DNA of 25,381 bases, taken from the NCBI GenBank assembly GCA_027623195.1, contig JAQBUT010000035.1, positions 1 to 25,381 of the forward strand. The letters run 5' to 3'. The DNA is from Chloroflexota bacterium. Its GTDB lineage: Bacteria; Chloroflexota; Dehalococcoidia; Lucifugimonadales; JADFKI01. Under the pieces are notes generated by a model. That model had not been told where the DNA came from, made no database searches, and saw nothing but the letters and a program-made list of their open reading frames with translations. Position numbers and translations under genes: made by a program. This document shows, in pieces, positions 156-25,381 of this stretch (positions within the stretch are counted from its first letter, which is position 1; each line of letters starts with the position of its first letter).

Positions 156-1292
156 CTACCAAATAAAATGCAGGTTGAGTATCTGCTTGTCCCCGTTATC
201 ATATGCGCCTACATTGAAATTTGAGCCCTTTCCGATTTTGCCAGACAGAACTTTCGCGTTCTTGATTGTAAGAAGGGGTGTAATCCAGCCTTCTACTTGT
301 TTGTTAACCTCATCACGGATTTCCAGCGTTTCATCCTTGTCGAATGGGCCTTCGCCTATGGTATAGGCGTTGTGAAAATCGTTGTAATGGAATCCTTTGT
401 CTTTGGCGCAGCGCATTACTTCGCCCTTGATGCCTCTGATGGCGCGGTCCCTGCGCTTCTCGTAGGGCACCGGCACGTATGGTTTGCTCACCTTTTTCTC
501 TGTCTTGCCGGACTTCTTTTCCGAAAGACCGGAGGATTTGCCGTACCATTTCGCTAAATCGGCATCGCTAATTTCGTCAGCCAGGCTGGACTCGCCATCT
601 GACGAACTGTCCAGGTTGTCTTCGACTTCCCTCTTTCCGCTCTTGATGAGTCTTTTCCTCAATTCTTTGGCAGTACCTACGGCAATCTGCAGGGCCTGAT
701 CAACAACGGGCGATTCCTTGTAGGTGATAGGCCGATCATACTGCGCCAGAATGTCGGCCAGTTCCTGCACGGCCTCCTTATCTTTGGAGGAAATCTCATT
801 GATCTGGGCCGAATCCACCACTGCTTTGATCTGCGCGAAGTTGTTTCCAATGTCGGACTTTCGCTGGTTGTCTTCCTTCTCCCAGTTTTTGGGGTAGAGG
901 CTTCCATACAAACTGAATACGCCGTAAGACCAGGATTCGTCGAATGTTGGCTTCCTTTGAATGAAATCTACAGCGCCTGAGTCTACATTGGAACTCTTTG
1001 CGAAACCAATGTGCTCAACGAGTCTCTGCACGTACCGGTTGCCGAAGTCGGCTGATATCTTGCGCATAATCGTCGCTCTTTGTTGCGAGTACATCCGCTG
1101 GGACATAAGCGGGCTGCTCAAGATATTGACGTGTTCCTGAAATGAAGAGGAGTGTGTTAGTGCCGTTTGTCGGTCGGATACCTGATTGTGCTCATCCTGC
1201 CCTACGGGGCGCGAGGTATTTTGGAGGTGACCTTGCCGCTGGGCAGCCTTGACCTCACCTTCGGATTTGCCCGGTGCTTTTGATAGGCGCAA
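156..1292 (-). CDS. Hypothetical protein resembling an eCIS effector/polymorphic toxin (GNxxVQR and IQR motifs, unknown C-terminal domain)
   Basis: 378-aa ORF, TTG start after AGGGGG RBS. QRATIMRKISADFGNRYVQRLV...FIQRK resembles the LQRxxGNxAVQR/IQR signature of DUF4157-type proteins. An S/E/K-rich linker precedes a ~105-aa C-terminal domain. Confidence 0.55.
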   Translation of the reverse strand: MRLSKAPGKSEGEVKAAQRQGHLQNTSRPVGQDEHNQVSDRQTALTHSSSFQEHVNILSSPLMSQRMYSQQRATIMRKISADFGNRYVQRLVEHIGFAKSSNVDSGAVDFIQRKPTFDESWSYGVFSLYGSLYPKNWEKEDNQRKSDIGNNFAQIKAVVDSAQINEISSKDKEAVQELADILAQYDRPITYKESPVVDQALQIAVGTAKELRKRLIKSGKREVEDNLDSSSDGESSLADEISDADLAKWYGKSSGLSEKKSGKTEKKVSKPYVPVPYEKRRDRAIRGIKGEVMRCAKDKGFHYNDFHNAYTIGEGPFDKDETLEIRDEVNKQVEGWITPLLTIKNAKVLSGKIGKGSNFNVGAYDNGDKQILNLHFIW

Positions 1293-4668: not shown

Positions 4669-5922
4669 ATGGTGACGACACATAAAAGAAACCACTACGT
4701 ACCTGAATGGTATCAACGCCGATTCCTGCCTATTGGTGTGAATTCTGCGGAATTTTACCGCCTCGACTTGAAACCCGATTCCGTGGTGGATGCCAAGGGC
4801 AAAACGCACAAGTTGGGAAATTTAAAGAAAGGGGGCCCCCAAAAGTTATTCGTTGAAGAAGATCTGTACACCACAACAATCGCGGGTTTGGAATCGAATG
4901 AAATAGAGCGGACATTTTTCGGCCGAGTTGACAGATTGGGCCAACAAGCGGTGGATTATTTTGCCACGTTTGACTCTCTCGGTGAAGGGATGTTCAAAGC
5001 CTACCAAGATCTGATCCCTTTTCTTTGCATGCAAAAGTTTCGGACCCCTAAAGGGCTTAAGTATCTTTCGCAACTAGTGGAAGCCGATGACAAGAATATA
5101 ATCCTTAGTGAACTTCAACGCCTTACACGAATATATGGTGCGGTGTGGACGGAAAGTATTTGGTGCATCGCGGACGCCACAAGCTCAGATACAAAGTTCA
5201 TTGTGTCCGATCATCCTGTGACTGTTTACAACGAAGACTGCAAGCCCGAGTCCGAGTTTTGCAGGGGTGCTAATGATCCCGAGGTGCGACTAGTTGGTTC
5301 GCACACACTGTTTCCGCTCAGTCTTGACAAATTGCTTGTGCTCACCAATCTTTCTTGGGTACGAAATCCATATCAGAGTCCTCTCAACATTAGGCCAAAC
5401 CCAGAGCTAAATAGGCCTACTGTGATGAGTTTCATGGATATCCAGGTGGGCAGGAAATTGACAGATACGGAAGTGAACGAAGTCAACTACATCATCAAAC
5501 GACGAGCGTACAGATATGTCGCGGCCGCGGATAGGGAATGGCTATTTCCAGAAAGCAAGATACCAAGAAGAAACTGGCGTAAACTCGGAGGAGGCTACCT
5601 TCTTTTCCCTGATCCCCGGTCGGTGTCATTCAGTAATGGGATCATGATGGGTTACCAAGATGGTTCAGTGGTGACCTTTGACGAGTACGGGCGCAGCCCA
5701 ATGCAAGAAGGTTATGGCGACAAAAATGGCAGAGACGGGGAATGGAAGACCTTTCAAGCATTTCAGGGTGAATTTGCCAGGATTTTTGGCCCCAAAAGAA
5801 AGGGTATCTCGCTGCATCCAGATTTTGGGACGGCTTTTAGCGAAGACAGCGAGGAGATGCACCAGCTTAACCTGGAAGCAGAGAAAAAGTTCAGACCGAA
5901 ATTTGCCCGGAGACGTTGGTAG
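4669..5922 (+). CDS. DUF4238 family protein
   Basis: N-terminal HKRNHYVPEWYQRRF (HYVP motif) and FIVSDHPV motif; visibly more AT-rich codons than its neighbours. Confidence 0.8.
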   Translation: MVTTHKRNHYVPEWYQRRFLPIGVNSAEFYRLDLKPDSVVDAKGKTHKLGNLKKGGPQKLFVEEDLYTTTIAGLESNEIERTFFGRVDRLGQQAVDYFATFDSLGEGMFKAYQDLIPFLCMQKFRTPKGLKYLSQLVEADDKNIILSELQRLTRIYGAVWTESIWCIADATSSDTKFIVSDHPVTVYNEDCKPESEFCRGANDPEVRLVGSHTLFPLSLDKLLVLTNLSWVRNPYQSPLNIRPNPELNRPTVMSFMDIQVGRKLTDTEVNEVNYIIKRRAYRYVAAADREWLFPESKIPRRNWRKLGGGYLLFPDPRSVSFSNGIMMGYQDGSVVTFDEYGRSPMQEGYGDKNGRDGEWKTFQAFQGEFARIFGPKRKGISLHPDFGTAFSEDSEEMHQLNLEAEKKFRPKFARRRW

Positions 5923-15847: not shown

Positions 15848-16604
15848 CGTCTCACCTCCCCGTAGGGTATTGGACATTTTTGCCCTGTTTACCTCAGTGT
15901 AGACTAAATTCATGCCTAAGTAAAGATGGCCGCGCAGTTGGCCAAGCCGAAACGCTCTCCTGCGTAGGACTTTGGATTAGGGAAGATTGCGGTAACACTG
16001 GCGTAACATACGCTGCCTTAATATGGAATTAACCACAGGAGAATAACTATCAACTAGTCAGGGATCATAGGCCGGTATATGTCGGCAGGGAGAGCATGAT
16101 ATGAGGTCATCGGCAACAGCTATTAAGCAGACAGGCGTAAATTGCGCCAGCAATATTTTGACGCTTATTACCTTCTTTGTGTTGAACCTAATATTCATAA
16201 TCCCCATAGCGCAATTCTTCCTCCGCACGCTTAATTAGGCATTGATTAAAATTAGGTCCTGCTTTTCAATCTCGGGGTTCCAAAACAGATTATTATATTC
16301 TTCTAATACAATGACTGAAAAGTGATTGACCCCCTACAGTACTTTCGAGGTATAAAGTACCTACGTAAGCTAACGTTGAGAGCCCAAGGGATCCAGCTAG
16401 TGGATGCGTACGCATATCGGCAATACCGGGTTGCCGAACTTCTCAACCCCACATTTCCCAGATGGGCAAAAAGTGTGATTGGGCTTACGCTTAAATCAAA
16501 GAATGTATCTCCACTATATAAGCTTAGTAAGGCCATTAAGTAGTAAAATACACCCATAGATTAGGACTATTCTGCTGATTACGCAATCATGCTGGAGGCA
16601 CCTC

Positions 16605-17093
16605 ATGGGTGAAGGCAATAAGGCCCCTCTCAGGGTAGGTTTTGACTCCAAAGTACGTCTGGAGTTCCACGGTTCTACTATCACCTCAGACGCAGGATTA
16701 CTGGCATGCAGAGAGCTTGATGACGCCCTGGGATTAACCGATTCCACCGACGAATACCTCAAGGAGGGTCGAACCGGTAAAAACATTCTCCATAAGCTAA
16801 TTCCTCTCCTTCGACAATCGATCTACAGCCGTCTTGCTGGATACGACGACACCAACGACGCGGACCGCCTTTCCCAAGACCCTGCCATGAGAGTTGTCGT
16901 CGGCTGGAAGGGCGCTGACAGGAAAGCTGCTAGCACCAGCGAGATGAGCAGGTTCGAGACAGAGTTGCTTACCCAGGAGGACAACCTCAAGGGCCTGGAA
17001 CGGCTGAATGTGGAATGGGTAAAACGCGCTGTAGCCAAGACAGTTCGCCAGCGCGTCATCCTGGACGTGGATAGCTCGGAGAGTCGGGTTCAT
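16605..17093 (+). pseudogene. IS1380 transposase, N-terminal 163 codons
   Basis: LEFHGSTITSDAGLLACRELDDALGL, RQSIYSRLAGYDDTNDADRL, SRFETE, ILDVDSSESRVH (consensus ESPVHG); similarity stops at 17093. Confidence 0.9.
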
Positions 17094-17150
17094 TGCTCGC
17101 GAATTGCTCGGGATGTATTGGCACCAGAAGCTCCAAAACTAGAAACCTAA
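17094..17150 (-). other. 5' stub of a third gene cassette, cut at the transposase junction
   Basis: Follows G/TTAGGT core site; GGAG RBS then GTG CCA ATA CAT CCC..., running into transposase DNA. Confidence 0.45.
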
Positions 17151-17219
17151 CGCCGTGCACACGGGCGCGCGATAGCGCGTCCGAGCGGCGCAGCCGCGTT
17201 GTGCTGCACCTTGTTATGT
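17145..17219 (-). mobile_element. Integron attC site (75 bp)
   Basis: Minus strand: ACATAAC (R'', contains the cassette stop)-aagGTGCAGCAC...GTGTGCACggc-GTTAGGT (R'); pairing arms with an extrahelical base. Confidence 0.85.
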
Positions 17220-17512
17220 GGTTGATTTTTCATCGTAAGGTATCTCTGCCCCAGAAGCATGAGCCAAATAGCTGAACACCTTAGTATTTGTAAAGCCGAC
17301 AGCAACAAAAGCGTTTAACACAATTCTTAGGCGACGTTGCACCTGTTCGTTTGTGCCACCAGATTGAAAACTGCCTGGATGCTCTGCGCAATATTCTTGT
17401 GGCGCTCGATTGGCTCTCCATTGAAATGATGAACTATATCGAAATACTCATCCGTAAAACCCATATCGACCAAGCGATCTAGTAGCTCCACTGTTTCGAT
17501 TGGTGCACTCAT
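17214..17512 (-). pseudogene. Cassette 2 hypothetical protein (~99 aa), frameshifted
   Basis: ATG 16 nt after the core site. A one-base shift near 17395 continues YCAEHPGSFQSGGTNEQVQRRLRIVLNAF...DEKSTT to a TAA inside the attC R'' site. Confidence 0.7.
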
Positions 17513-17527
17513 ATCTGCTCATAGAAC

Positions 17528-17641
17528 ACCTAACACCCACTTAAGCGGCCGAAGCAGTTGGCGATTGGCTTGCGTACGCAAGCCAAGTGACAATTGCTGA
17601 GGTCCGAGCGGCTTTGCCGCGCCTTGAAGTGCATGTTATAC
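17528..17641 (-). mobile_element. Integron attC site (114 bp)
   Basis: Minus strand: GTATAAC-atgCACTTCAAG...CTTAAGTGggt-GTTAGGT; internal perfect 22-bp palindrome 17565-17586. Confidence 0.85.
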
Positions 17642-18259
17642 GCCATTCTCACTCACTACTCGCATTACGATAGAAACGATCTGGTCTCTTTCAGCTGTAT
17701 CGAACCATTCTCTTGTAGTTCCTACGCGATTGTATTGACTAGAGACTTCAGCCTTAACTAGACCCTCGAGTTCAATCAGGCGAGCGGGCTCGATGTGAAC
17801 TATAGGCTTAAACACTATCTCTCCCCCAAAAGTCCTATGGTAAGCCGCTGCTCTCTTCTCAAAGTCATGGGTAATCCCAACCTTAGTATGAAAGCAATTA
17901 ACCGTGTTCTTATTTTGTTTATGAATTGGTTTCAATTCGGCCGTGGTTGGATAGGCTATATAGAAGCCTGTGTTTTCGACCGCAGACCGTATCGCCTTTA
18001 GTGGGGCTTTCAATCGTTCTTGTTTTGGCGGGCGTGTCTTGGTGGTATCACCTCTGACACTTCCAAGCCATCCGTTTTTGATGCAGTATCTTACAAACCC
18101 TTTTGCGCCCAGAGGATGATCATGACCTTTGCAAATAGCCACCAGTTCGGGCACTGTTGCACTACCAGGCCCGAGAGCCGAGGCAAGCTTCTCCCAACTC
18201 GATAGATTATGCGAGGCTTTTATATTGGGATTATTGGCGATTCGAAATTTCTCAGGCAT
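17636..18259 (-). CDS. Cassette 1: GIY-YIG (T5orf172-like) nuclease with a small N-terminal domain (207 aa)
   Basis: FYIAY...TKVGITHDFEKR...ELEGLVK...REWF pattern; ATG after AAGGA RBS; TAA inside attC R''; cassette 5' end GTTATACGCCA is the exact complement of its 3' end TGGCGTATAAC. Confidence 0.75.
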   Translation of the reverse strand: MPEKFRIANNPNIKASHNLSSWEKLASALGPGSATVPELVAICKGHDHPLGAKGFVRYCIKNGWLGSVRGDTTKTRPPKQERLKAPLKAIRSAVENTGFYIAYPTTAELKPIHKQNKNTVNCFHTKVGITHDFEKRAAAYHRTFGGEIVFKPIVHIEPARLIELEGLVKAEVSSQYNRVGTTREWFDTAERDQIVSIVMRVVSENGV

Positions 18260-18276
18260 TGCGTTGCTTCCTTGGC

Positions 18277-18340
18277 GTATAACATTGTTTAGATTGATCC
18301 GCATTACACCCCAAATGCTATCACAAGTGCCGTATAAGAC
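18277..18340 (-). mobile_element. attI-like site (first cassette crossover at G/TT, 18283/18282)
   Basis: Minus strand TAATGCGGATCAATCTAAACAAT-GTTATAC resembles the attI1 end CTAAAACAAA-GTT; no attC-type arm next to the core site. Confidence 0.55.
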
Positions 18341-18728
18341 GCCTGAGAAACAAGAATCGAACCGGTCGTAACTGACGAATTATCCGCTTGCCCACCGAGA
18401 TGCTGGTCTTATCACGGCGTGTTATGCGGATCGGCATAATACCCTTTGTTCGTTTCGCACGTTTCCAACCAGCTTCATCGGATTGAAAGTCTCCGTGCCA
18501 ATATCGAATCCTTCTGGAGACGCCGTTTATTTGCTTTTCCCGTAGCAGATTTAAGCCGGTCTGTCAGCTACCCTTTTGAAGCGTGCCAAAATTGCAGCCG
18601 AGTCCTACACGAAATCCTCGTTCATGTGGATACTTCAACTACATTGACTGATTATCTCTGATTCCGCAAGGCAGGGCTCAATGTTTGGGATTGGAACCGC
18701 ATGGAGCACGTCATGCCAGGAGGCTCAC

Positions 18729-18771
18729 ATTCCAGTTCCGACTCCGTCGAGAATCCTCGATGAAATCGGGA
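18729..18771 (+). pseudogene. Possible 5' stub of integron integrase intI
   Basis: AGGAGG RBS, 5 nt, then ATT (possibly mutated ATG) and PVPTPSRILDEI, similar to the IntI N-terminal PRLLDQV; divergent from the cassettes as expected; only ~14 codons. Confidence 0.3.
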
Positions 18772-18852
18772 CTTGCTGAAGTCATGGTGTCGAGGGATAT
18801 GTTCGATGAAATGCTGGAAAGGATTGGGAGGCTGAGACCTGTACCTGGATAG
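18772..18852 (+). pseudogene. IS1380 transposase, C-terminal 26 codons
   Basis: LAEVMVSRDMFDEMLERIGRLRPVPG-stop matches the LAEVAVPRxLFxxILERIxRLR C-terminus typical of IS1380 transposases. Confidence 0.75.
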
Positions 18853-18916
18853 CAAACCACCGGCGAGCCTAAATTCATGAACGTATCGAGACTACCCAGG
18901 GCGAAGTGCGCGACGT

Positions 18917-19024
18917 GTAAGGTGAAGTTCGGCCTGAAACGGCCGTTTAGAGTCTTTCCAAGTCGATGGGAACTCCATTCCTCTAGATGAGGTGAATTTG
19001 AGTGCGGTTTGTGGCGTTTGACAA
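18917..19024 (+). repeat. 108-bp direct repeat, copy 1 (within the IS right end)
   Basis: Identical to 22957-23064 except one base (18953 T vs 22993 C); offset 4040 bp. Confidence 0.97.
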
Positions 19025-19046
19025 TTTCAGAATGCCGCCATATAGT
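19018..19046 (+). promoter_or_regulatory. Outward-facing sigma70 promoter in the IS right end
   Basis: TTGACA-N17-TATAGT; -10 ends ~80 nt upstream of the kinase ATG; GGAGG RBS at 19113-19117. Confidence 0.75.
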
Positions 19047-19127
19047 CGGTGCTATCTCAGGAGAGCATGGTTATGCAAGGACTGGATGCCATCTGGGAAA
19101 TATCGGCTTGAGGGAGGTTAGTTTTCA

Positions 19128-22100
19128 ATGCCCAGTGAGCGTATTCAACAGCAGATTGACCGCCTTCTTGATGAGGCTGTAGAGGCCCTTTCCAGATTCG
19201 ACTGGGAAGCGGTTGCCGAACGCGCCAAAGCAGTACTAAGATTCGACTCTTCGAACGCCGACGCTATTTCATTTCTTGATGCTGCTCAGGGTGGTGCCGA
19301 CGGGCAGGAACAACCTCTGGCCACTCAGGAATCTCCGAACCGGGCTGCATCACCTTCTGAATCTGAGCCCACATCCTTCTCAGACGGCCGGTACCAGGTC
19401 AAGCGCTTCCTGGGCGAGGGCGGTAAGAAGAAAGTCTACCTGGCCCACGACGAGCTGCTGGACAGGGACATCGCCTTCGCACTAATCAAGTCCGAGGGCT
19501 TGGACGCCATATCCCGCGAGCGCATCACCCGAGAGGCGCAGGCCATGGGCAGGCTTGGCTCGCATCCCCATATCGTTACCGTGCTGGACCTTGGCGAACA
19601 GAACGGCCAACCCTACATGGTCATTGAGCTTCTTGCCGGCGGCGACGTAGAAGGCGTCGTGGAAGACGCACCAGACCACAAACTGCCTTTAGAGCAGGCG
19701 GTACGCATCGCCATCGAGACTTGCAGAGGCCTGGAGTTCGCCCACAGCAAGGGCATCATCCACCGGGACCTGAAGCCCGGCAACGTCTGGCTCACCGGCG
19801 ACGGCACCGCCAAGATAGGCGACTTCGGCCTGGCCGTGGCGATTGACAGGAGCAGGCTAACCCAGGCAGGCATGATGGTGGGCACCGTAAGCTACATGCC
19901 GCCAGAGCAGGCCATGGGAGGTGAGGTAACACCCAAGGCAGACCTCTACTCTCTGGGCGCAATGCTGTACGAGATGGTGGCTGGCCGACCGCCATTTCTC
20001 GGCGACGACAACATCGCCATCATAGGTCAGCACATCAACACGCAGGCCGTGGCCCCCACGTGGCACCGCAGCGACTGCCCCCGTCCGCTGGAAGCCCTCA
20101 TCATGCGGATGCTGGCCAAGAACCCCGACGAGAGGCCAGCCAACGCTGGAGATGTGCGGGTGGCACTGGAGGCAATCGATCTGTCCGCCGCCAAATCCAT
20201 AGAGCAATCAGTAAACGAGACCCATGTGCTAGATAGCCTTGCCGGAGACGTCTTCGTAGGCAGGCAGGCCGAGATGGGCCAGCTAAAAGCAGCGCTGGAG
20301 GACGCCCTGTCGGGTAAGGGCCGCATGGTCACCCTGGTAGGCGAGCCAGGCATAGGCAAGACCCGGACAGCGCAGGAGCTAGCCACCTATGCTGGACTTC
20401 GTGGCTGTCAGGTGTTGTGGGGACGCTGCTACGAGGAGCAGGGCGTGCCTCCCTACTGGCCCTGGGTACAAGCCATCCGCAGCTACGTCCGGGAGCGCAC
20501 CCCCGAAGAACTCAGAAGTGAGATGGGTTCCGGTGCCGCCGACATCGCCGAGGTCATCTCCGATGTAAGAGCAAAACTCCCTGATTTAGAAAGTCCGCAG
20601 CAGTTGGACAGTCCGGAGCAGGCCCGTTTCAGGCTCTTCGACTCCATTGCGGCCTTTCTGAAGACCGCCAGTCAGAGAAAGCCCATCGTGCTTATGCTGG
20701 ACGACCTGCACTGGTCGGACAAGCCATCACTAATGTTTCTGGAATTTCTCACACGGGAACTGGCCAACACCAGGCTGTTGGTTGTCGGCACGTACAGGGA
20801 CGTGGAGCTAAGCCGTCAGCACCCCCTGGCCGAGACGCTAGGGGAGCTGACCCGGCAAAGGCTTTTCGAGCGGGTGCTGTTAAGAGGACTATCACAAGCA
20901 GACGTAAGCCGGTTCATCGAAGTCTCCTCTGGAATCACGGCGCCCCTCACACTGGCCCGCGCCGTGTACACCCAGACCGAGGGCAATCCGTTGTTCGTCA
21001 CCGAGGTAGTTCGGCTGCTGGTGCAGGAGGGCGAGCTTACGCAGGACCGCGTCCGTGACCGCGACTCCTGGGAGATACGTGTGCCCGAGGGAGTGCGGGA
21101 GGTCATAGGGCGACGCCTGAACCGCCTCTCCCAACGCTGCAACGAGACGCTGACGGTAGCAGCCGTGGTGGGCCGTGAGTTTACCCTGACCCAACTGGAC
21201 CGGCTAATAGACGACTTGACCCAGGACATGGTGCTGGACGTGCTGGAAGAGGCGCTAGCAGCCCGGCTCATCGAGGAGCTACCAACATCGGTGGGCCTCT
21301 ACCAGTTCACCCACGCCCTCATGCAGGAGACGCTCATCAACGAGCTGAGCCTGACCCGCCGCGTCCGCCTCCACGCCCGCATCGCCGAAACGCTGGAGGC
21401 GCTATACGGCGACGATGCAGAGTCCCATGCGGCAGAGCTGGCCCACCACTTCGCCCAGGCCGAGGCCGTGTTGGGGCCTGAAAAGTTGGCGCGGTGGTCA
21501 AAAACGGCGGGCGAACGAGCTCTGGCTTCGCTGGCCTACGAGGATGCAGAAATATTGTTCGCTGGTGCGATTGCGGCTATAGGTGATATCGACACGAAGA
21601 AAGAAACTGCTGAAATCTATTACGGTTTGGGCCGCTCTCAGGTTGCACAAGGTAAGGAAACGTCAGCTGTATCAAATTTTCGCCGTTCATTCGAATACTA
21701 CGTTCAGGTCGGGGACAATGCGAATGCAGTGGCTGTTGTCGAACATCCCTACGCCGCATCGTCGGCAGTACTCATGACTGACTTGCTTTCCCAGGCGTTG
21801 AAACTTGTCCGCCCTGGTTCGATTGAGTCCGCCCGTGTCCAGGCCTCCTATGGTTTTTCTGTTGGTGTATCCGGCAGCGGATATGAGGAAGGCATGCGGT
21901 ATTTCCGCGACTCCCTGGAAATTGCCAGGCGAGAGAAGGACCGAGCTTTGGAACGGCGGATTTTGGCAGCCTCAGCCAACGTGGATGGCTTTCACGGTGA
22001 ATGGAAGAAATGTCTTGAAAGCAGTCTTGAATCCCTTAAATTATCATCTGAGGCTCATGAATACCCCATCGACAGACTTCGCGCCCACCTTTGGGTCATC

Positions 22101-22928
22101 ATCAGCTCGGCCACCCTAGGTGATGCGAAACTGGCAATCGAACATGCAGATGAAATGCTGACCCATGCCGAGTCGCTACGCGACATCACCTGGGTCCATA
22201 GGGCAATTCTCACGAATCTGTGCCTTGCAGTAGCTAAGGGGAAATGGGAAGACGGCCAACTTCTGGCTGAAAGATGTTGGCATCCGTACCACCAAGAAAG
22301 AGCGAACGACTTGCAGGGACTTACGGCGTACCAGACTGGTGCTAATAAAGTTGGCGAAGCATACCTGAATAGCTGGCCGGAATCACCAGTCTTCTTCGAA
22401 GGGTTTGACTGTTTGATCCGGGCGCTGGTTTCGAAGATTACAGGTAGCGAGAAGGATTTTGAAGAAATTAAAATTCGAGCTAATAGGATTAAAACTAATC
22501 CTGATTCGAGGCCCTTGGGTTTCGTGGCCGTTAATGCGGCTCTCGGTTTAATTGCGACCGTCAGCAATGATGTTCATCTAGCTTCTAGCCAATATCTTGC
22601 ATTAAGCCCAGACCGGAACACCTTCTGTTTACAAGCCGTTGTTAGCCATGATCGCCTTCTCGGACTGCTAGCCCAAACAATAGGCAACCTCGACGACGCT
22701 CAATCCCACTTCGAAGATGCCATCGCCTTTTGCCGCAAGGCAGGCTACCGTCCCGAGCTAGCGTGGTCCCTGGGCGACTACGCCGACATGCTGCTGCAGC
22801 GCGGCGAAGACGGCGACAAGGAAAAGGCCACCGCCATGCTGGACGAGTCCCTGGCCATATCCACCGAGTTGGGCATGCGGCCCCTCATGGAGCGCGTGCT
22901 GTCCCGGCGGGAGATACTGAAGGCGTAA
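19128..22928 (+). CDS. Ser/Thr protein kinase - STAND (AAA_16-type) NTPase - helical/TPR-like repeat protein
   Basis: GEGGKKKV, HRDLKPGN, DFG, YMPPE kinase motifs; FVGR, GEPGIGKT Walker A, LMLDDLHW Walker B, TEGNPLFV, YQFTHAL; helical C-terminus. Confidence 0.93.
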   Translation: MPSERIQQQIDRLLDEAVEALSRFDWEAVAERAKAVLRFDSSNADAISFLDAAQGGADGQEQPLATQESPNRAASPSESEPTSFSDGRYQVKRFLGEGGKKKVYLAHDELLDRDIAFALIKSEGLDAISRERITREAQAMGRLGSHPHIVTVLDLGEQNGQPYMVIELLAGGDVEGVVEDAPDHKLPLEQAVRIAIETCRGLEFAHSKGIIHRDLKPGNVWLTGDGTAKIGDFGLAVAIDRSRLTQAGMMVGTVSYMPPEQAMGGEVTPKADLYSLGAMLYEMVAGRPPFLGDDNIAIIGQHINTQAVAPTWHRSDCPRPLEALIMRMLAKNPDERPANAGDVRVALEAIDLSAAKSIEQSVNETHVLDSLAGDVFVGRQAEMGQLKAALEDALSGKGRMVTLVGEPGIGKTRTAQELATYAGLRGCQVLWGRCYEEQGVPPYWPWVQAIRSYVRERTPEELRSEMGSGAADIAEVISDVRAKLPDLESPQQLDSPEQARFRLFDSIAAFLKTASQRKPIVLMLDDLHWSDKPSLMFLEFLTRELANTRLLVVGTYRDVELSRQHPLAETLGELTRQRLFERVLLRGLSQADVSRFIEVSSGITAPLTLARAVYTQTEGNPLFVTEVVRLLVQEGELTQDRVRDRDSWEIRVPEGVREVIGRRLNRLSQRCNETLTVAAVVGREFTLTQLDRLIDDLTQDMVLDVLEEALAARLIEELPTSVGLYQFTHALMQETLINELSLTRRVRLHARIAETLEALYGDDAESHAAELAHHFAQAEAVLGPEKLARWSKTAGERALASLAYEDAEILFAGAIAAIGDIDTKKETAEIYYGLGRSQVAQGKETSAVSNFRRSFEYYVQVGDNANAVAVVEHPYAASSAVLMTDLLSQALKLVRPGSIESARVQASYGFSVGVSGSGYEEGMRYFRDSLEIARREKDRALERRILAASANVDGFHGEWKKCLESSLESLKLSSEAHEYPIDRLRAHLWVIISSATLGDAKLAIEHADEMLTHAESLRDITWVHRAILTNLCLAVAKGKWEDGQLLAERCWHPYHQERANDLQGLTAYQTGANKVGEAYLNSWPESPVFFEGFDCLIRALVSKITGSEKDFEEIKIRANRIKTNPDSRPLGFVAVNAALGLIATVSNDVHLASSQYLALSPDRNTFCLQAVVSHDRLLGLLAQTIGNLDDAQSHFEDAIAFCRKAGYRPELAWSLGDYADMLLQRGEDGDKEKATAMLDESLAISTELGMRPLMERVLSRREILKA

Positions 22929-22956
22929 GCAATACGCCAGTCAGCTCTTATGCCAC

Positions 22957-23146
22957 GTAAGGTGAAGTTCGGCCTGAAACGGCCGTTTAGAGCCTTTCCA
23001 AGTCGATGGGAACTCCATTCCTCTAGATGAGGTGAATTTGAGTGCGGTTTGTGGCGTTTGACAACACCGGAACGAGGTCATAAAGTCTGTATTATCTCAA
23101 GATGGTGTGTATATGAATGCGCTGCAATCCATCTGGGAAATCCCTG
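22957..23146 (+). repeat. Second IS1380 right end: 108-bp repeat copy 2, diverged tail and IR
   Basis: 22957-23064 matches copy 1; 23065-23141 aligns ungapped to 19025-19101 at 51/77; retains TTGACA-N17-TAAAGT and CCATCTGGGAAAT (23129-23141). Confidence 0.85.
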
Positions 23147-23486
23147 TAAAAATTGATACCTGTTCCTGATAATGCAATCATTATGGCGAATCCTGTAGTA
23201 AATTGAATAAGAACTATTAACGAATCTGGGGGACGCGGCAAATGGCCCGCCGCTTTGACGACCCACACAGAGGGAGCGGACCTTCCTAAGAGGCGAGGAA
23301 TCCATGTGATTACGCTCGGAAAACTCCTCGCCAGAACTGCGGGTCGCAGCGCCTTACCGAGTTCTCTGATGACTAGCTTAAGCGTTCACGGGTCCAGCTC
23401 AGAGTAGCCTGACTTACCTACAGGACCGTCTCTGACTTAATAGCTCGTCGCGAGACTGGAAGCGGAGCGAAAGCATTAGGTGAGGG

Positions 23487-23861
23487 GTGAAGGATCTGAC
23501 CGACAGGAAAGGAGCTTTGGGAAAATCGCAGGGACCGGTTAACTTCGGCGAGATACTAGAGGCCTGCTTGTTTTGCGCGGACGGTGGCGGCACATTCCAC
23601 ATAGGCGATGTCAAAACCAGGGTCTTGGACAACCATTTGGGGTCACATGCTCAGTATTCAGACGAGCGGAGCTTCAGAAATTCGATCCAAGGACGTATCG
23701 AGAAGAGGGCGTCGGGTAGGGCGGAATCGGTACCACCATATTACTTCGTCGGGCTTAGTCGCGGCTTCTATCAAATTACTGAATACGGACATGACGCATT
23801 AAAGGCGTACAAAAAGAATGGCTATTGGGTAGGCTCCCCGAGTTATCACGGACGACCGTAG
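23487..23861 (+). CDS. Small winged-helix-like protein (Mrr N-terminal-like)
   Basis: GTG after AGGTGAGG RBS; SRGFYQITEYGHDAL wing motif; directly upstream of hsdM. Confidence 0.55.
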   Translation: MKDLTDRKGALGKSQGPVNFGEILEACLFCADGGGTFHIGDVKTRVLDNHLGSHAQYSDERSFRNSIQGRIEKRASGRAESVPPYYFVGLSRGFYQITEYGHDALKAYKKNGYWVGSPSYHGRP

Positions 23862-23921
23862 GGGGAAGCCTCTCTTAGGAAGTGCTAACACTTACCTTCC
23901 CAAAAAGGAAACGAAACACCA

Positions 23922-25381
23922 ATGGCAGTCAAGAAATCAGAACTCTACTCTTCGCTTTGGGCTAGCTGCGACGAACTTCGTGGCGCAATGGACGCTTCTC
24001 AGTACAAAGACTATGTACTGGTGCTGCTCTTCGTGAAGTATGTAAGCGACAAGTACTCTGGAGTTCCCTATTCTTCCATCACGGTCCCGGAGGGAGCCAG
24101 CTTTAAGGACATGGTAGCCCTGAAAGGCTCTAGCGACATCGGCGAAAAAATAAACACGAAGATCATCGGACCGCTCGAAAAAGCAAACAACCTGTCAGGC
24201 ATGCCGGACTTTAACGACCCCACCAAGCTCGGCACCGGCAAAGAGATGGTGGATCGGCTCTCCGACCTTATCGCCATATTCGAGAACCCGGCGCTCAATT
24301 TCTCCAGCAATCACGCTGGTGATGACGACATCATGGGCGATGCTTACGAATATCTGATGCGCCACTTCGCCACTGAGAGTGGCAAGAGTAAGGGGCAATT
24401 TTACACTCCTTCTGAAGTAAGCCGCATCATGGCGCAGATCATCGGCATTCACGATGCGAAAACGACAAATGCCACAACCGTCTATGACCCCACATGCGGA
24501 TCAGGTTCGCTGCTCTTGAAAGTGGGCGACCAGGCCAGTGCACAGGTCACCCTCTACGGGCAGGAGAGCGACGCCGCCACCGCTGGCCTCGCCCGCATGA
24601 ACATGATTTTGCACGACAACCCTACCGCGCTCATCAGACAGGGTAATACTCTTGCGAATCCTCTGTTTACCGAAGCCGGACAGCTTAAGACGTTTGACTA
24701 CGTGATTGCGAATCCACCGTTTAGCGACAAGCGTTGGGGCACCGGATTTAACCCGCTTGAGGACATCCACGAGAGGTTCAAGCTTTTCGGAGTGCCTCCT
24801 GCGAAACAGGGCGACTACGCGTACCTTCTGCACATCATCAGGTCTCTCAAGAGTCAGGGTAAAGGCGCCTGTATCTTGCCGCACGGGGTGCTGTTTCGGG
24901 GCAATGCCGAGGCTGCCATACGAAGTAACTTGATTCGCAGGGGCTACATTAAGGGCATCATCGGGCTACCTGCCAACCTCTTTTACGGCACCAGCATACC
25001 CGCCTGCATCGTCGTGGTGGACAAGGAAGGTGCTTCTACGAGACAGGGTATCTTTATGATTGATGCCTCTCGGAACTTCATCAAAGAAGGCCCCAAGAAC
25101 CGCCTGCGCGAGATGGACATTCACAAGATTGTCGATATCTTCAACAATCAGACTGAGGAGCCCAAGTATTCCAGGATAGTGAGCTTTGAGGAGATTGAAA
25201 AGAACGAGTTCAACCTCAACATACGCCGTTACATCGACGGCCAGCAGGCTGAGGATGTCCAGGATATTGAGGGGCACTTGCGTGGTGGCATACCGGAGTC
25301 TGACGTGGACGAGCTTGAACAATACTGGTCGGTCTGCCCACAACTTCGAGGAACCCTTTTTACAGAGATGCGCCCCGGGTA
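23922..25381 (+). CDS. hsdM: Type I restriction-modification methyltransferase subunit M (partial, runs off the window)
   Basis: MAVKKSELYSSLWASCDELRGAMDASQYKDY, GQFYTP, YDPTCGSGSLL, ANPPF, LPHGVLFRG, FNLNIRRY; absent from the ORF track because it has no stop in the window. Confidence 0.96.
   Translation, partial: MAVKKSELYSSLWASCDELRGAMDASQYKDYVLVLLFVKYVSDKYSGVPYSSITVPEGASFKDMVALKGSSDIGEKINTKIIGPLEKANNLSGMPDFNDPTKLGTGKEMVDRLSDLIAIFENPALNFSSNHAGDDDIMGDAYEYLMRHFATESGKSKGQFYTPSEVSRIMAQIIGIHDAKTTNATTVYDPTCGSGSLLLKVGDQASAQVTLYGQESDAATAGLARMNMILHDNPTALIRQGNTLANPLFTEAGQLKTFDYVIANPPFSDKRWGTGFNPLEDIHERFKLFGVPPAKQGDYAYLLHIIRSLKSQGKGACILPHGVLFRGNAEAAIRSNLIRRGYIKGIIGLPANLFYGTSIPACIVVVDKEGASTRQGIFMIDASRNFIKEGPKNRLREMDIHKIVDIFNNQTEEPKYSRIVSFEEIEKNEFNLNIRRYIDGQQAEDVQDIEGHLRGGIPESDVDELEQYWSVCPQLRGTLFTEMRPG

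Follow-up and report, generated by a model that had tools for sequence, protein, structure and literature searches.

The window analysed here, 25,381 nt in length, is a complete contig (JAQBUT010000035.1; C39) of the Chloroflexota genome bin GCA_027623195.1, which comprises 65 contigs and is 87% complete. At its centre lies an intact gene on the plus strand (19128..22928) that encodes a 1266-aa protein with a Ser/Thr kinase domain, an AAA_16-type STAND ATPase domain and tetratricopeptide repeats (TPR). The gene is bracketed by two right ends of insertion sequences (ISs) of the IS1380 family, RE1 upstream and RE2 downstream. Further upstream are a block of gene cassettes and an IS1380 left arm that begins at position 16448. 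On balance, this IS patchwork probably reflects promoter fixation: an IS1380 right end became established upstream of a labile signalling gene, downstream of which lies a second right end that was trimmed and has swapped its tip.

The kinase gene and its two right ends

RE1 (18709..19106, plus strand) is a 398-nt 3' remnant of a type-A IS1380 element. It contains the last transposase codons, the stop codon (18850-18852) and a full right end, and is 96.7% identical over 335 nt to an intact type-A copy (L047) and 93% identical to a remnant on contig C3. Its right inverted repeat (IR; 19089-19106, 18/18 matches) is followed by the target-like pentamer CTTGA, the two together occupying 19089..19111 on the plus strand, and 21 nt separate the IR from the ATG of the kinase gene. 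The stop codon of this gene (TAA) ends at 22928 and is followed by a 28-nt plus-strand spacer (22929..22956), which is unique in the genome and shows no likeness to an IR, and then by RE2. The direct repeat formed by the two ends starts at 18917 and 22957, a spacing of 4040 bp. Its copies are identical at 107 of 108 nt (a single T/C difference at 18953, with its counterpart at 22993), after which identity falls to 51 of 77, and the drop sits immediately after the -35 hexamer TTGACA(A).

RE2 is both 5'-truncated and chimeric. Its body (22957..23064, plus strand) is type-A right-end sequence that is cut at the pentamer GTAAG, whereas its promoter-bearing tip (23065..23146, plus strand) is of another isoform ('B'). 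The promoter of this end, TTGACA-17-TAAAGT, lies at 23058-23086, and its IR, at 23129-23146, is degenerate (15/18). When recomputed, the repeat counts, the retained IR core, the 28-nt distance and the 4040-bp spacing given in the first-pass annotation were reproduced, and the direct repeat does bracket the kinase gene, so that excision by recombination is physically possible. The motif CGTAAG occurs at the kinase stop codon and again at the start of RE2 (22924-22961), 32 nt apart, possibly by chance.

The transposase pieces in the window belong to IS1380/DDE_Tnp_1_4 (PF13701, E 3e-38), the family named earlier. Their match to NF033539 (E 1e-29) stays under the cut-off because the transposase is truncated: relative to a 443-aa intact relative, codons 1-163 lie in the left arm and codons ~409-443 at 18709-18849, and codons 164-408 are missing.

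An outward-facing sigma-70-type promoter, TTGACA-17-TATAGT (19018..19046, plus strand), is located in RE1, 81 nt upstream of the kinase ATG. It matches the consensus at 11 of 12 positions and ranks first among nine sites in the region 16000-24000, followed by that of RE2 (10/12). Several homologues of the kinase gene have their own TTGAC-N17-TACACT-like leader at the corresponding position, and the RE1 promoter has probably replaced such a native promoter and now probably serves the kinase gene. The left flank CTTGA of L047 was considered as the native leader and rejected, being unrelated sequence. Other IS1380 tips ahead of genes were also observed. In four genomes (L050, L058, L068 and L096), the same 85-aa gene is preceded, at a distance of 13-18 nt, by a conserved tip of ~50 nt, and in three of them the target pentamer forms part of the ribosome-binding site, as in a domesticated IS end. 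In three genomes (L007, L008 and L009), a type-A tip of ~105 nt on a foreign body precedes the same short-chain dehydrogenase gene by 28-29 nt.

The catalytic and Walker motifs of the kinase protein are in place (HRDLKPGN at 212, DFG at 232, Walker A at 405 and Walker B at 522), and both the kinase and the STAND ATPase are predicted to be active. The placement of lysines is WNK-like: the usual beta-3 lysine is absent (IAFALIK; residues 96-121, window 19413-19475), and the glycine-rich loop (GEGGKKKVY) contains lysines. The Pkinase + AAA_16 + TPR architecture is the same as that of PknK/MalT-type proteins, and PknK is presumably the appropriate name for it. The kinase and ATPase parts match the TOMM kinase/cyclase model under its cut-off; no curated NCBIfam model was matched above cut-off, and no solved structure matching the residues after the kinase domain was found. 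The best 25 PADLOC hits cover the kinase domain only, and a defence role, such as that of an Avs-like anti-phage STAND system, is therefore not established.

The helical sensor block of the protein (21490..22682, plus strand) is exchangeable. Its GC content at third codon positions is 0.49, compared with 0.75-0.85 in the flanking parts, and paralogues within a genome are 90-98% alike in the kinase or ATPase and 29-43% alike in the sensor block. In metagenome runs X3 and X4 (described below), the block is replaced by 1205 other nt (joint 21489-22683, with 255 nt on the shorter side), and the alleles are 96-97% alike on both sides of the replaced 1.2 kb.

Homologous loci were sought in 200 genomes (E<=1e-100), which gave matches in 19 other genomes, and their flanks were fetched up to 1.5 kb. 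IS1380 DNA was found in the fetched flanks of none of the 29 homologous loci in these genomes and none of 17 further loci in three close relatives. The possibility raised earlier that other kinase-STAND loci are flanked by the same IS end was thus not borne out, and bracketing is not supported as a trait of the family. In three cases, IS remnants were seen further away from family members, at 2.3 kb (opposite strand), 4 kb and 5 kb; an IS match beside a further kinase locus (L118) stemmed from non-IS1380 sequence that the query contained, and it disappeared with a clean library. A homologue in genome G002 sits at a locus syntenic with contig C24 of the window's genome, where C24 has none; the kinase family therefore comes and goes without these IS ends. 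Homologues at L116, L035 and L022 have extra copies of N- or C-terminal modules nearby, which are possible recombination arms.

The left arm at 16448 and the population data

The left arm (16448..17093, plus strand) begins with a left IR (16448..16465, plus strand) and contains transposase codons 1-163 (16605-17093, with the ATG at 16605). It is 83% identical to L047, compared with 96.7% for RE1, and the two therefore represent different isoforms, that of the left IR being termed 'C'. Against an intact IS record it shows 35 differences over 16448-17035, and the 28 listed all lie within 16790-17003. The left arm is thus probably a mosaic, which appears to follow an intact 1743-nt multicopy IS up to ~16790 and a diverged isoform thereafter.

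The first-pass annotation had reported no target duplication. One does exist: TCAAC is present immediately before the left IR (16443..16447, plus strand) and again on another contig of the same genome (C60:69-73). C60 starts with a third kind of tip, which ends in a perfect IR followed by TCAAC. When the window flank and the C60 flank are joined with one TCAAC, they align without gaps to an IS-free site in a relative, G002, over 102 columns, whereas two copies of TCAAC force a 5-nt gap. The same gene order is found free of IS in a second relative, G001, and in X3 and X4 a long record departs from the window exactly at 16447, the insertion at 16448 being absent. In runs X1 and X2, a record of 1743/1744 nt starts at 16448 and ends with 21 nt matching the IR; the same 21-nt run is common to the C60 tip and RE1. 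Contig C20 ends in the same 68 nt as the C60-type IS end. On these alignments, the event at 16448 is shown to be the insertion of a multicopy, intact type-C IS with duplication of TCAAC. A search of 400 class-level genomes (E<=1e-60) for an intact type-C element gave none beyond one 74% match.

These findings bear on the 6.7-kb unit, from the left IR to RE2, that had been proposed earlier. The left IR has its TCAAC partner on C60, RE2 is followed by TAAAA, and no GG-ending, IR-like 18-mer precedes any of the seven TCAAC sites further downstream in the window; the left IR-RE2 segment was therefore rejected as an inserted unit. Given the two isoforms and the TCAAC partner on C60, the 6.7-kb stretch is neither one IS nor one inserted unit.

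Runs containing the stretch are aquatic and estuary metagenomes; none of those listed is an RNA run, which has no bearing on expression. Runs X1-X4, of which X1 is possibly the source sample and X3 and X4 belong to a second study, were compared as contigs only. In X1 and X2, IR1 and the start of the kinase gene are on one contig with no differences (19079/19076-19796). In X3 and X4, the kinase allele runs through the spacer and 30 nt into the IS body, one nt under the bridging rule of the tool. Since these two runs lack the 16448 insertion yet contain the kinase-spacer-IS-body join, the inner bracket probably exists as assembled and predates that insertion. X3 and X4 also contain an IR-to-kinase joint with another N-terminus, a weak hint given the 26 nt on its short side. 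The 'B' tip and hsdM tail are without cover in X2-X4 and the cassette block in X3 and X4, although absence in contigs proves nothing.

In each of the four runs, the kinase contig was about as deep as the chromosomal flank (36.7-38.3 vs 36.2 in X1, and 6.2-7.9 vs 6.6, 18.8 vs 19.9 and 8.9 vs 7.6 in the others), contig depth being a weak measure by the tool's own warning. This hints at about one copy of the gene with no evident amplification, contrary to the amplification envisaged in the first-pass annotation.

The layout might in part be a product of assembly, with IS repeats of a mixed population collapsed and the path drawn through them, in which case the pieces need not share one molecule. 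Each join passes through a repeat, an intact IS begins at the same left end, contig C25 offers an alternative entry, and the depths of the pieces in X1 are unlike (flank 36.2, cassettes 19.5, kinase 36.7 and tail after RE2 4.4-13; again a weak measure). In addition, the contig ends inside hsdM, a Type I methyltransferase gene on the plus strand (23922..25381), and no HsdS was found in the 87%-complete bin. This explanation is nevertheless distinctly unlikely for the layout as a whole, given the undisturbed IR1-to-kinase contigs of X1 and X2, the recurrence of the kinase-spacer-IS-body join in a second study, and the occurrence of chimeras between body and tip on megabase-scale contigs elsewhere (L061 and L112). 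An artefactual inner bracket is hardly to be expected, while an artefact in one of the outer joins is a serious possibility, if short of probable.

The IS1380 clade and the origin of the second right end

The IS end found in the window was present at 63 genome loci; Dehalococcoidia is the title of 58 of these and Chloroflexota that of 3, the remaining 2 belonging to other phyla. Intact relatives (40 copies of 1730-1774 nt, 28 of them from two genomes and hence not independent) have IRs of 18 bp, and 11 of the 40 show matched 5-bp duplications with a consensus of roughly YTNAR, compared with 2.6% by random pairing. Among the 43 copies with both ends in view, 31 lack a matching duplication. In five of these 31, the left pentamer recurs behind an IR-like, GG-ending 18-mer within 6 kb (0.96 expected from the pentamers of other copies), and two of the five capture candidates end at the terminus of another element. 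L065 consists of an IS plus 454 nt between copies of TATAA, and L081 provides the corresponding empty site. Judged from such alignments, this clade performs ISEcp1-like capture, with one case verified against an empty site, in agreement with the earlier suggestion that IS1380 elements mobilise downstream DNA by alternative right ends. The remaining 26 unmatched copies may reflect recombination between copies or longer modules. A candidate captured module of 25 nt was noted at L112: beyond the IR, at a distance of 25 nt, the left pentamer is found again after a GG end that scores 11/18. A check of the reading frame at the empty site of L112 gave an ambiguous result.

Capture could have taken either of two forms here: a module made up of a type-A IS and the kinase gene, ending just past the stop codon, landed in another IS right end at GTAAG and left RE2 as the downstream remnant, or the left IR may now be able to use RE2 as an alternative end. 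GTAAG has been seen as a duplication in the clade (L095), and truncated ends comparable with RE2 exist. At least three other 5'-truncated type-A ends are present in the genome, on C3 (396 nt), C25 (164 nt) and C14 (119 nt). IR-like 18-mers immediately precede the one on C25 (13/18; background 7 of 5000) and the one on C3 (11/18; background 154 of 5000), and these two ends are probably the scars of modules that landed in, or were deleted into, another IS copy. At C25:36691-36872 and C3:10484-10989, an IR-like 18-mer and a target pentamer directly precede the truncated right end; the truncated end on C14 lies 27 nt ahead of an open reading frame (ORF). In the window, the usual likeness of alternative ends being judged from this clade's own cases, the 18-mer preceding RE2 scores at most 7/18, the background mode, and lacks a terminal GG. 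No IR-like GG end was found between the kinase stop codon and RE2, the flank of RE2 is not TCAAC, and the predicted upstream GTAAG and left end are absent. Moreover, the left arm and RE1 are of different isoforms, and the block contains no intact transposase. We regard capture as an unlikely origin of the bracket.

We hold an equally doubtful view of the alternative that a 4040-bp circle (type-A right end, kinase gene and spacer), excised elsewhere, was integrated by homologous recombination into a resident end with a type-A body and a 'B' tip. Such a circle would explain the single repeat start and the 107/108 identity in one step, and chimeras of a type-A body with another tip exist in the clade. 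C25 stops with the same right end and the same four flank bases as RE1, which hints at a second upstream context for the kinase gene. The circle nonetheless needs a pre-existing chimera, the normal continuous form being transposase end, type-A body and type-A tip (L047, C3 and L021), and it still requires an illegitimate join at 22956/22957. The similar depth of kinase and flank (the weak measure given above) also speaks against it. Each short word of the circle junction occurs in the linear form as well and tells neither for nor against a circle. If the circle were real, a STAND kinase with a variable sensor could be moved around a population in a simple way. A wider scheme, in which right ends act as portable promoters and recombination sites, is very unlikely: trimmed ends planted around genes would swap tips at the -35 box, and the bracketed receptor with its exchangeable sensor block would loop out as a 4-kb circle and re-enter any right end, so that a population would shuffle both promoter and location of an immune-like or signalling receptor without an intact transposase in the block.

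Chimeric ends like RE2 are found in other genomes. Loci L061 and L112 (the same as L032 and L033), both from one genome, are 99.2% identical over 4773 nt, and 25 of their 39 differing positions fall in the last ~80 nt before the IR. Body and tip identities are 0.99 and 0.69 in this pair and 0.90 and 0.73 between L051-type copies and L162. The tips are invariant among the 17 and 11 copies of two expansions, so that hypervariation of tips at each transposition was rejected; occasional recombination between isoforms near the -35 box, rather than programmed variation, is therefore indicated.

Under promoter fixation, the reading that we prefer, a type-A IS1380 element inserted at a target-type pentamer just upstream of the kinase ribosome-binding site, where its end now lies, and its outward promoter would have taken over from the native one. 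The IS lost most of its transposase and its left end by deletion, which left the 398-nt right end. Downstream, a second type-A copy in the same orientation would have been trimmed to its last ~190 nt, and the tip of this chimeric end probably derives from another isoform through recombination in the conserved -35-box block. Separately, an intact type-C IS1380 element inserted at 16448 with its TCAAC duplication, and the cassette-RE1-kinase block would have been joined to the type-C left arm by recombination between IS copies, or by the assembler. The kinase gene, flanked by two non-autonomous ends, is thus probably driven by an IS promoter and probably present in one copy; it is not a demonstrated transposition unit.

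Several points weigh against promoter fixation. The promoter is a consensus match only, and a sense ORF follows remnant ends in 20 of 40 cases and intact copies in 13 of 38 (p 0.18); the proposal that remnants lie ahead of genes more often than intact copies was accordingly dropped as not significant, the 'non-intact' set having included interrupted copies. The origin proposed for the RE2 junction is conjectural, and the outer joins of the block all pass through repeats. Finally, a target-like pentamer marks the start of each of the four truncated type-A ends (Fisher p ~0.003, driven by C25; null fractions 0.148, 0.007, 0.075 and 0.127, RE2 alone lying in the top 15%), an observation that suggests transposase action more than random deletion.

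The block between the left arm and RE1 consists of cassettes on the minus strand. From RE1 inwards, it contains an attI-like region before the first cassette (18277..18520; a label that we infer), of which a 92% copy exists on C19 and at which the X3 and X4 records begin (18281). Next come a gene with a T5orf172-like domain (17636..18304, likely start 18259; PF10544, E 5e-4), attC-like site 1 (17528..17641), attC-like site 2 (17145..17219) and a third cassette that is cut off at 17094. Both sites have RYYYAAC..GTTRRRY cores, with GTTAGGT as R', and the R'' of site 1 contains the stop codon of the T5orf172 gene. Folding exceeds that of shuffled sequences at site 1 only (z -3.6/-5.4, 0 of 200 shuffles as stable); site 2 (z -1.4/-1.5) lies within the shuffles. 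No integron integrase match above the TIGR02249 cut-off was found in the 87%-complete bin.

Between RE2 and hsdM lies a 124-aa ORF (23487-23861) with no family match, the frame of which is uncertain, a low-depth X1 contig having an extra T after 23543. Elsewhere in the window, a 378-aa ORF (156-1292, minus strand) has no Pfam or NCBIfam match, and a low-GC DUF4238 gene (4669-5922, plus strand) immediately follows uvrA. Neither Rfam families nor tRNAs were found in the window, and no relatives of the IR or the kinase gene were found in viral contigs. Many contig ends of the window's genome (G000) share 64-98-nt sequences of several families, one of which also occurs after a C-terminal kinase remnant in G001 (L021:2007-2130).

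Comparison with known systems

The cassette block resembles an attC cluster without an integron integrase, a category that we take to be CALIN, in having two attC-like sites, cassette genes on one strand and no IntI in the bin. It differs in that its cassettes number only slightly more than two and are enclosed by IS arms.

As defined in PMC12589106, PMC9330008 and PMC3281130, the ISEcp1/ISPme1 transposable modules (TMos, or transposition units) of the IS1380 family share with this clade a DDE_Tnp_1_4 transposase, a 5-bp AT-rich duplication, a complete outward promoter in the right end and capture by alternative right ends, here at L065. The window differs from them in lacking an intact transposase, an alternative end downstream of the cargo and a duplication that flanks the proposed unit. 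The host is of the Dehalococcoidia type, and the adjacent gene functions in signalling instead of resistance. The translocatable units and pseudo-compound transposons of IS26 are described in PMC11102541 as placing cargo between direct IS repeats, from which circles and tandem arrays can form. The repeat in the window is 108 nt of a defective end, not a whole active IS, and no circle or array was seen in the contigs. Among the titles found, which cover subscription journals thinly, none dealt with such modules in Chloroflexota or with tip exchange.

A further parallel is the ISEcp1 remnant of ~200 bp upstream of blaOXA-232, a case of promoter fixation (PMC9330008). In both cases, most of the IS is deleted and a right end with a complete promoter stands directly ahead of the gene, whereas in the window a second remnant follows the gene and tips have been exchanged between isoforms near the -35 box. 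The apparent 6.7-kb unit, which does not survive a reading of the remaining genome, is a cautionary example. Descriptions of ISEcp1-type capture and promoter donation concern mainly resistance genes in Proteobacteria and Bacteroides; the same behaviour is seen here in an IS1380 clade of uncultured Dehalococcoidia, with promoter tips exchanged between isoforms. The type of event is known, and the lineage is new.

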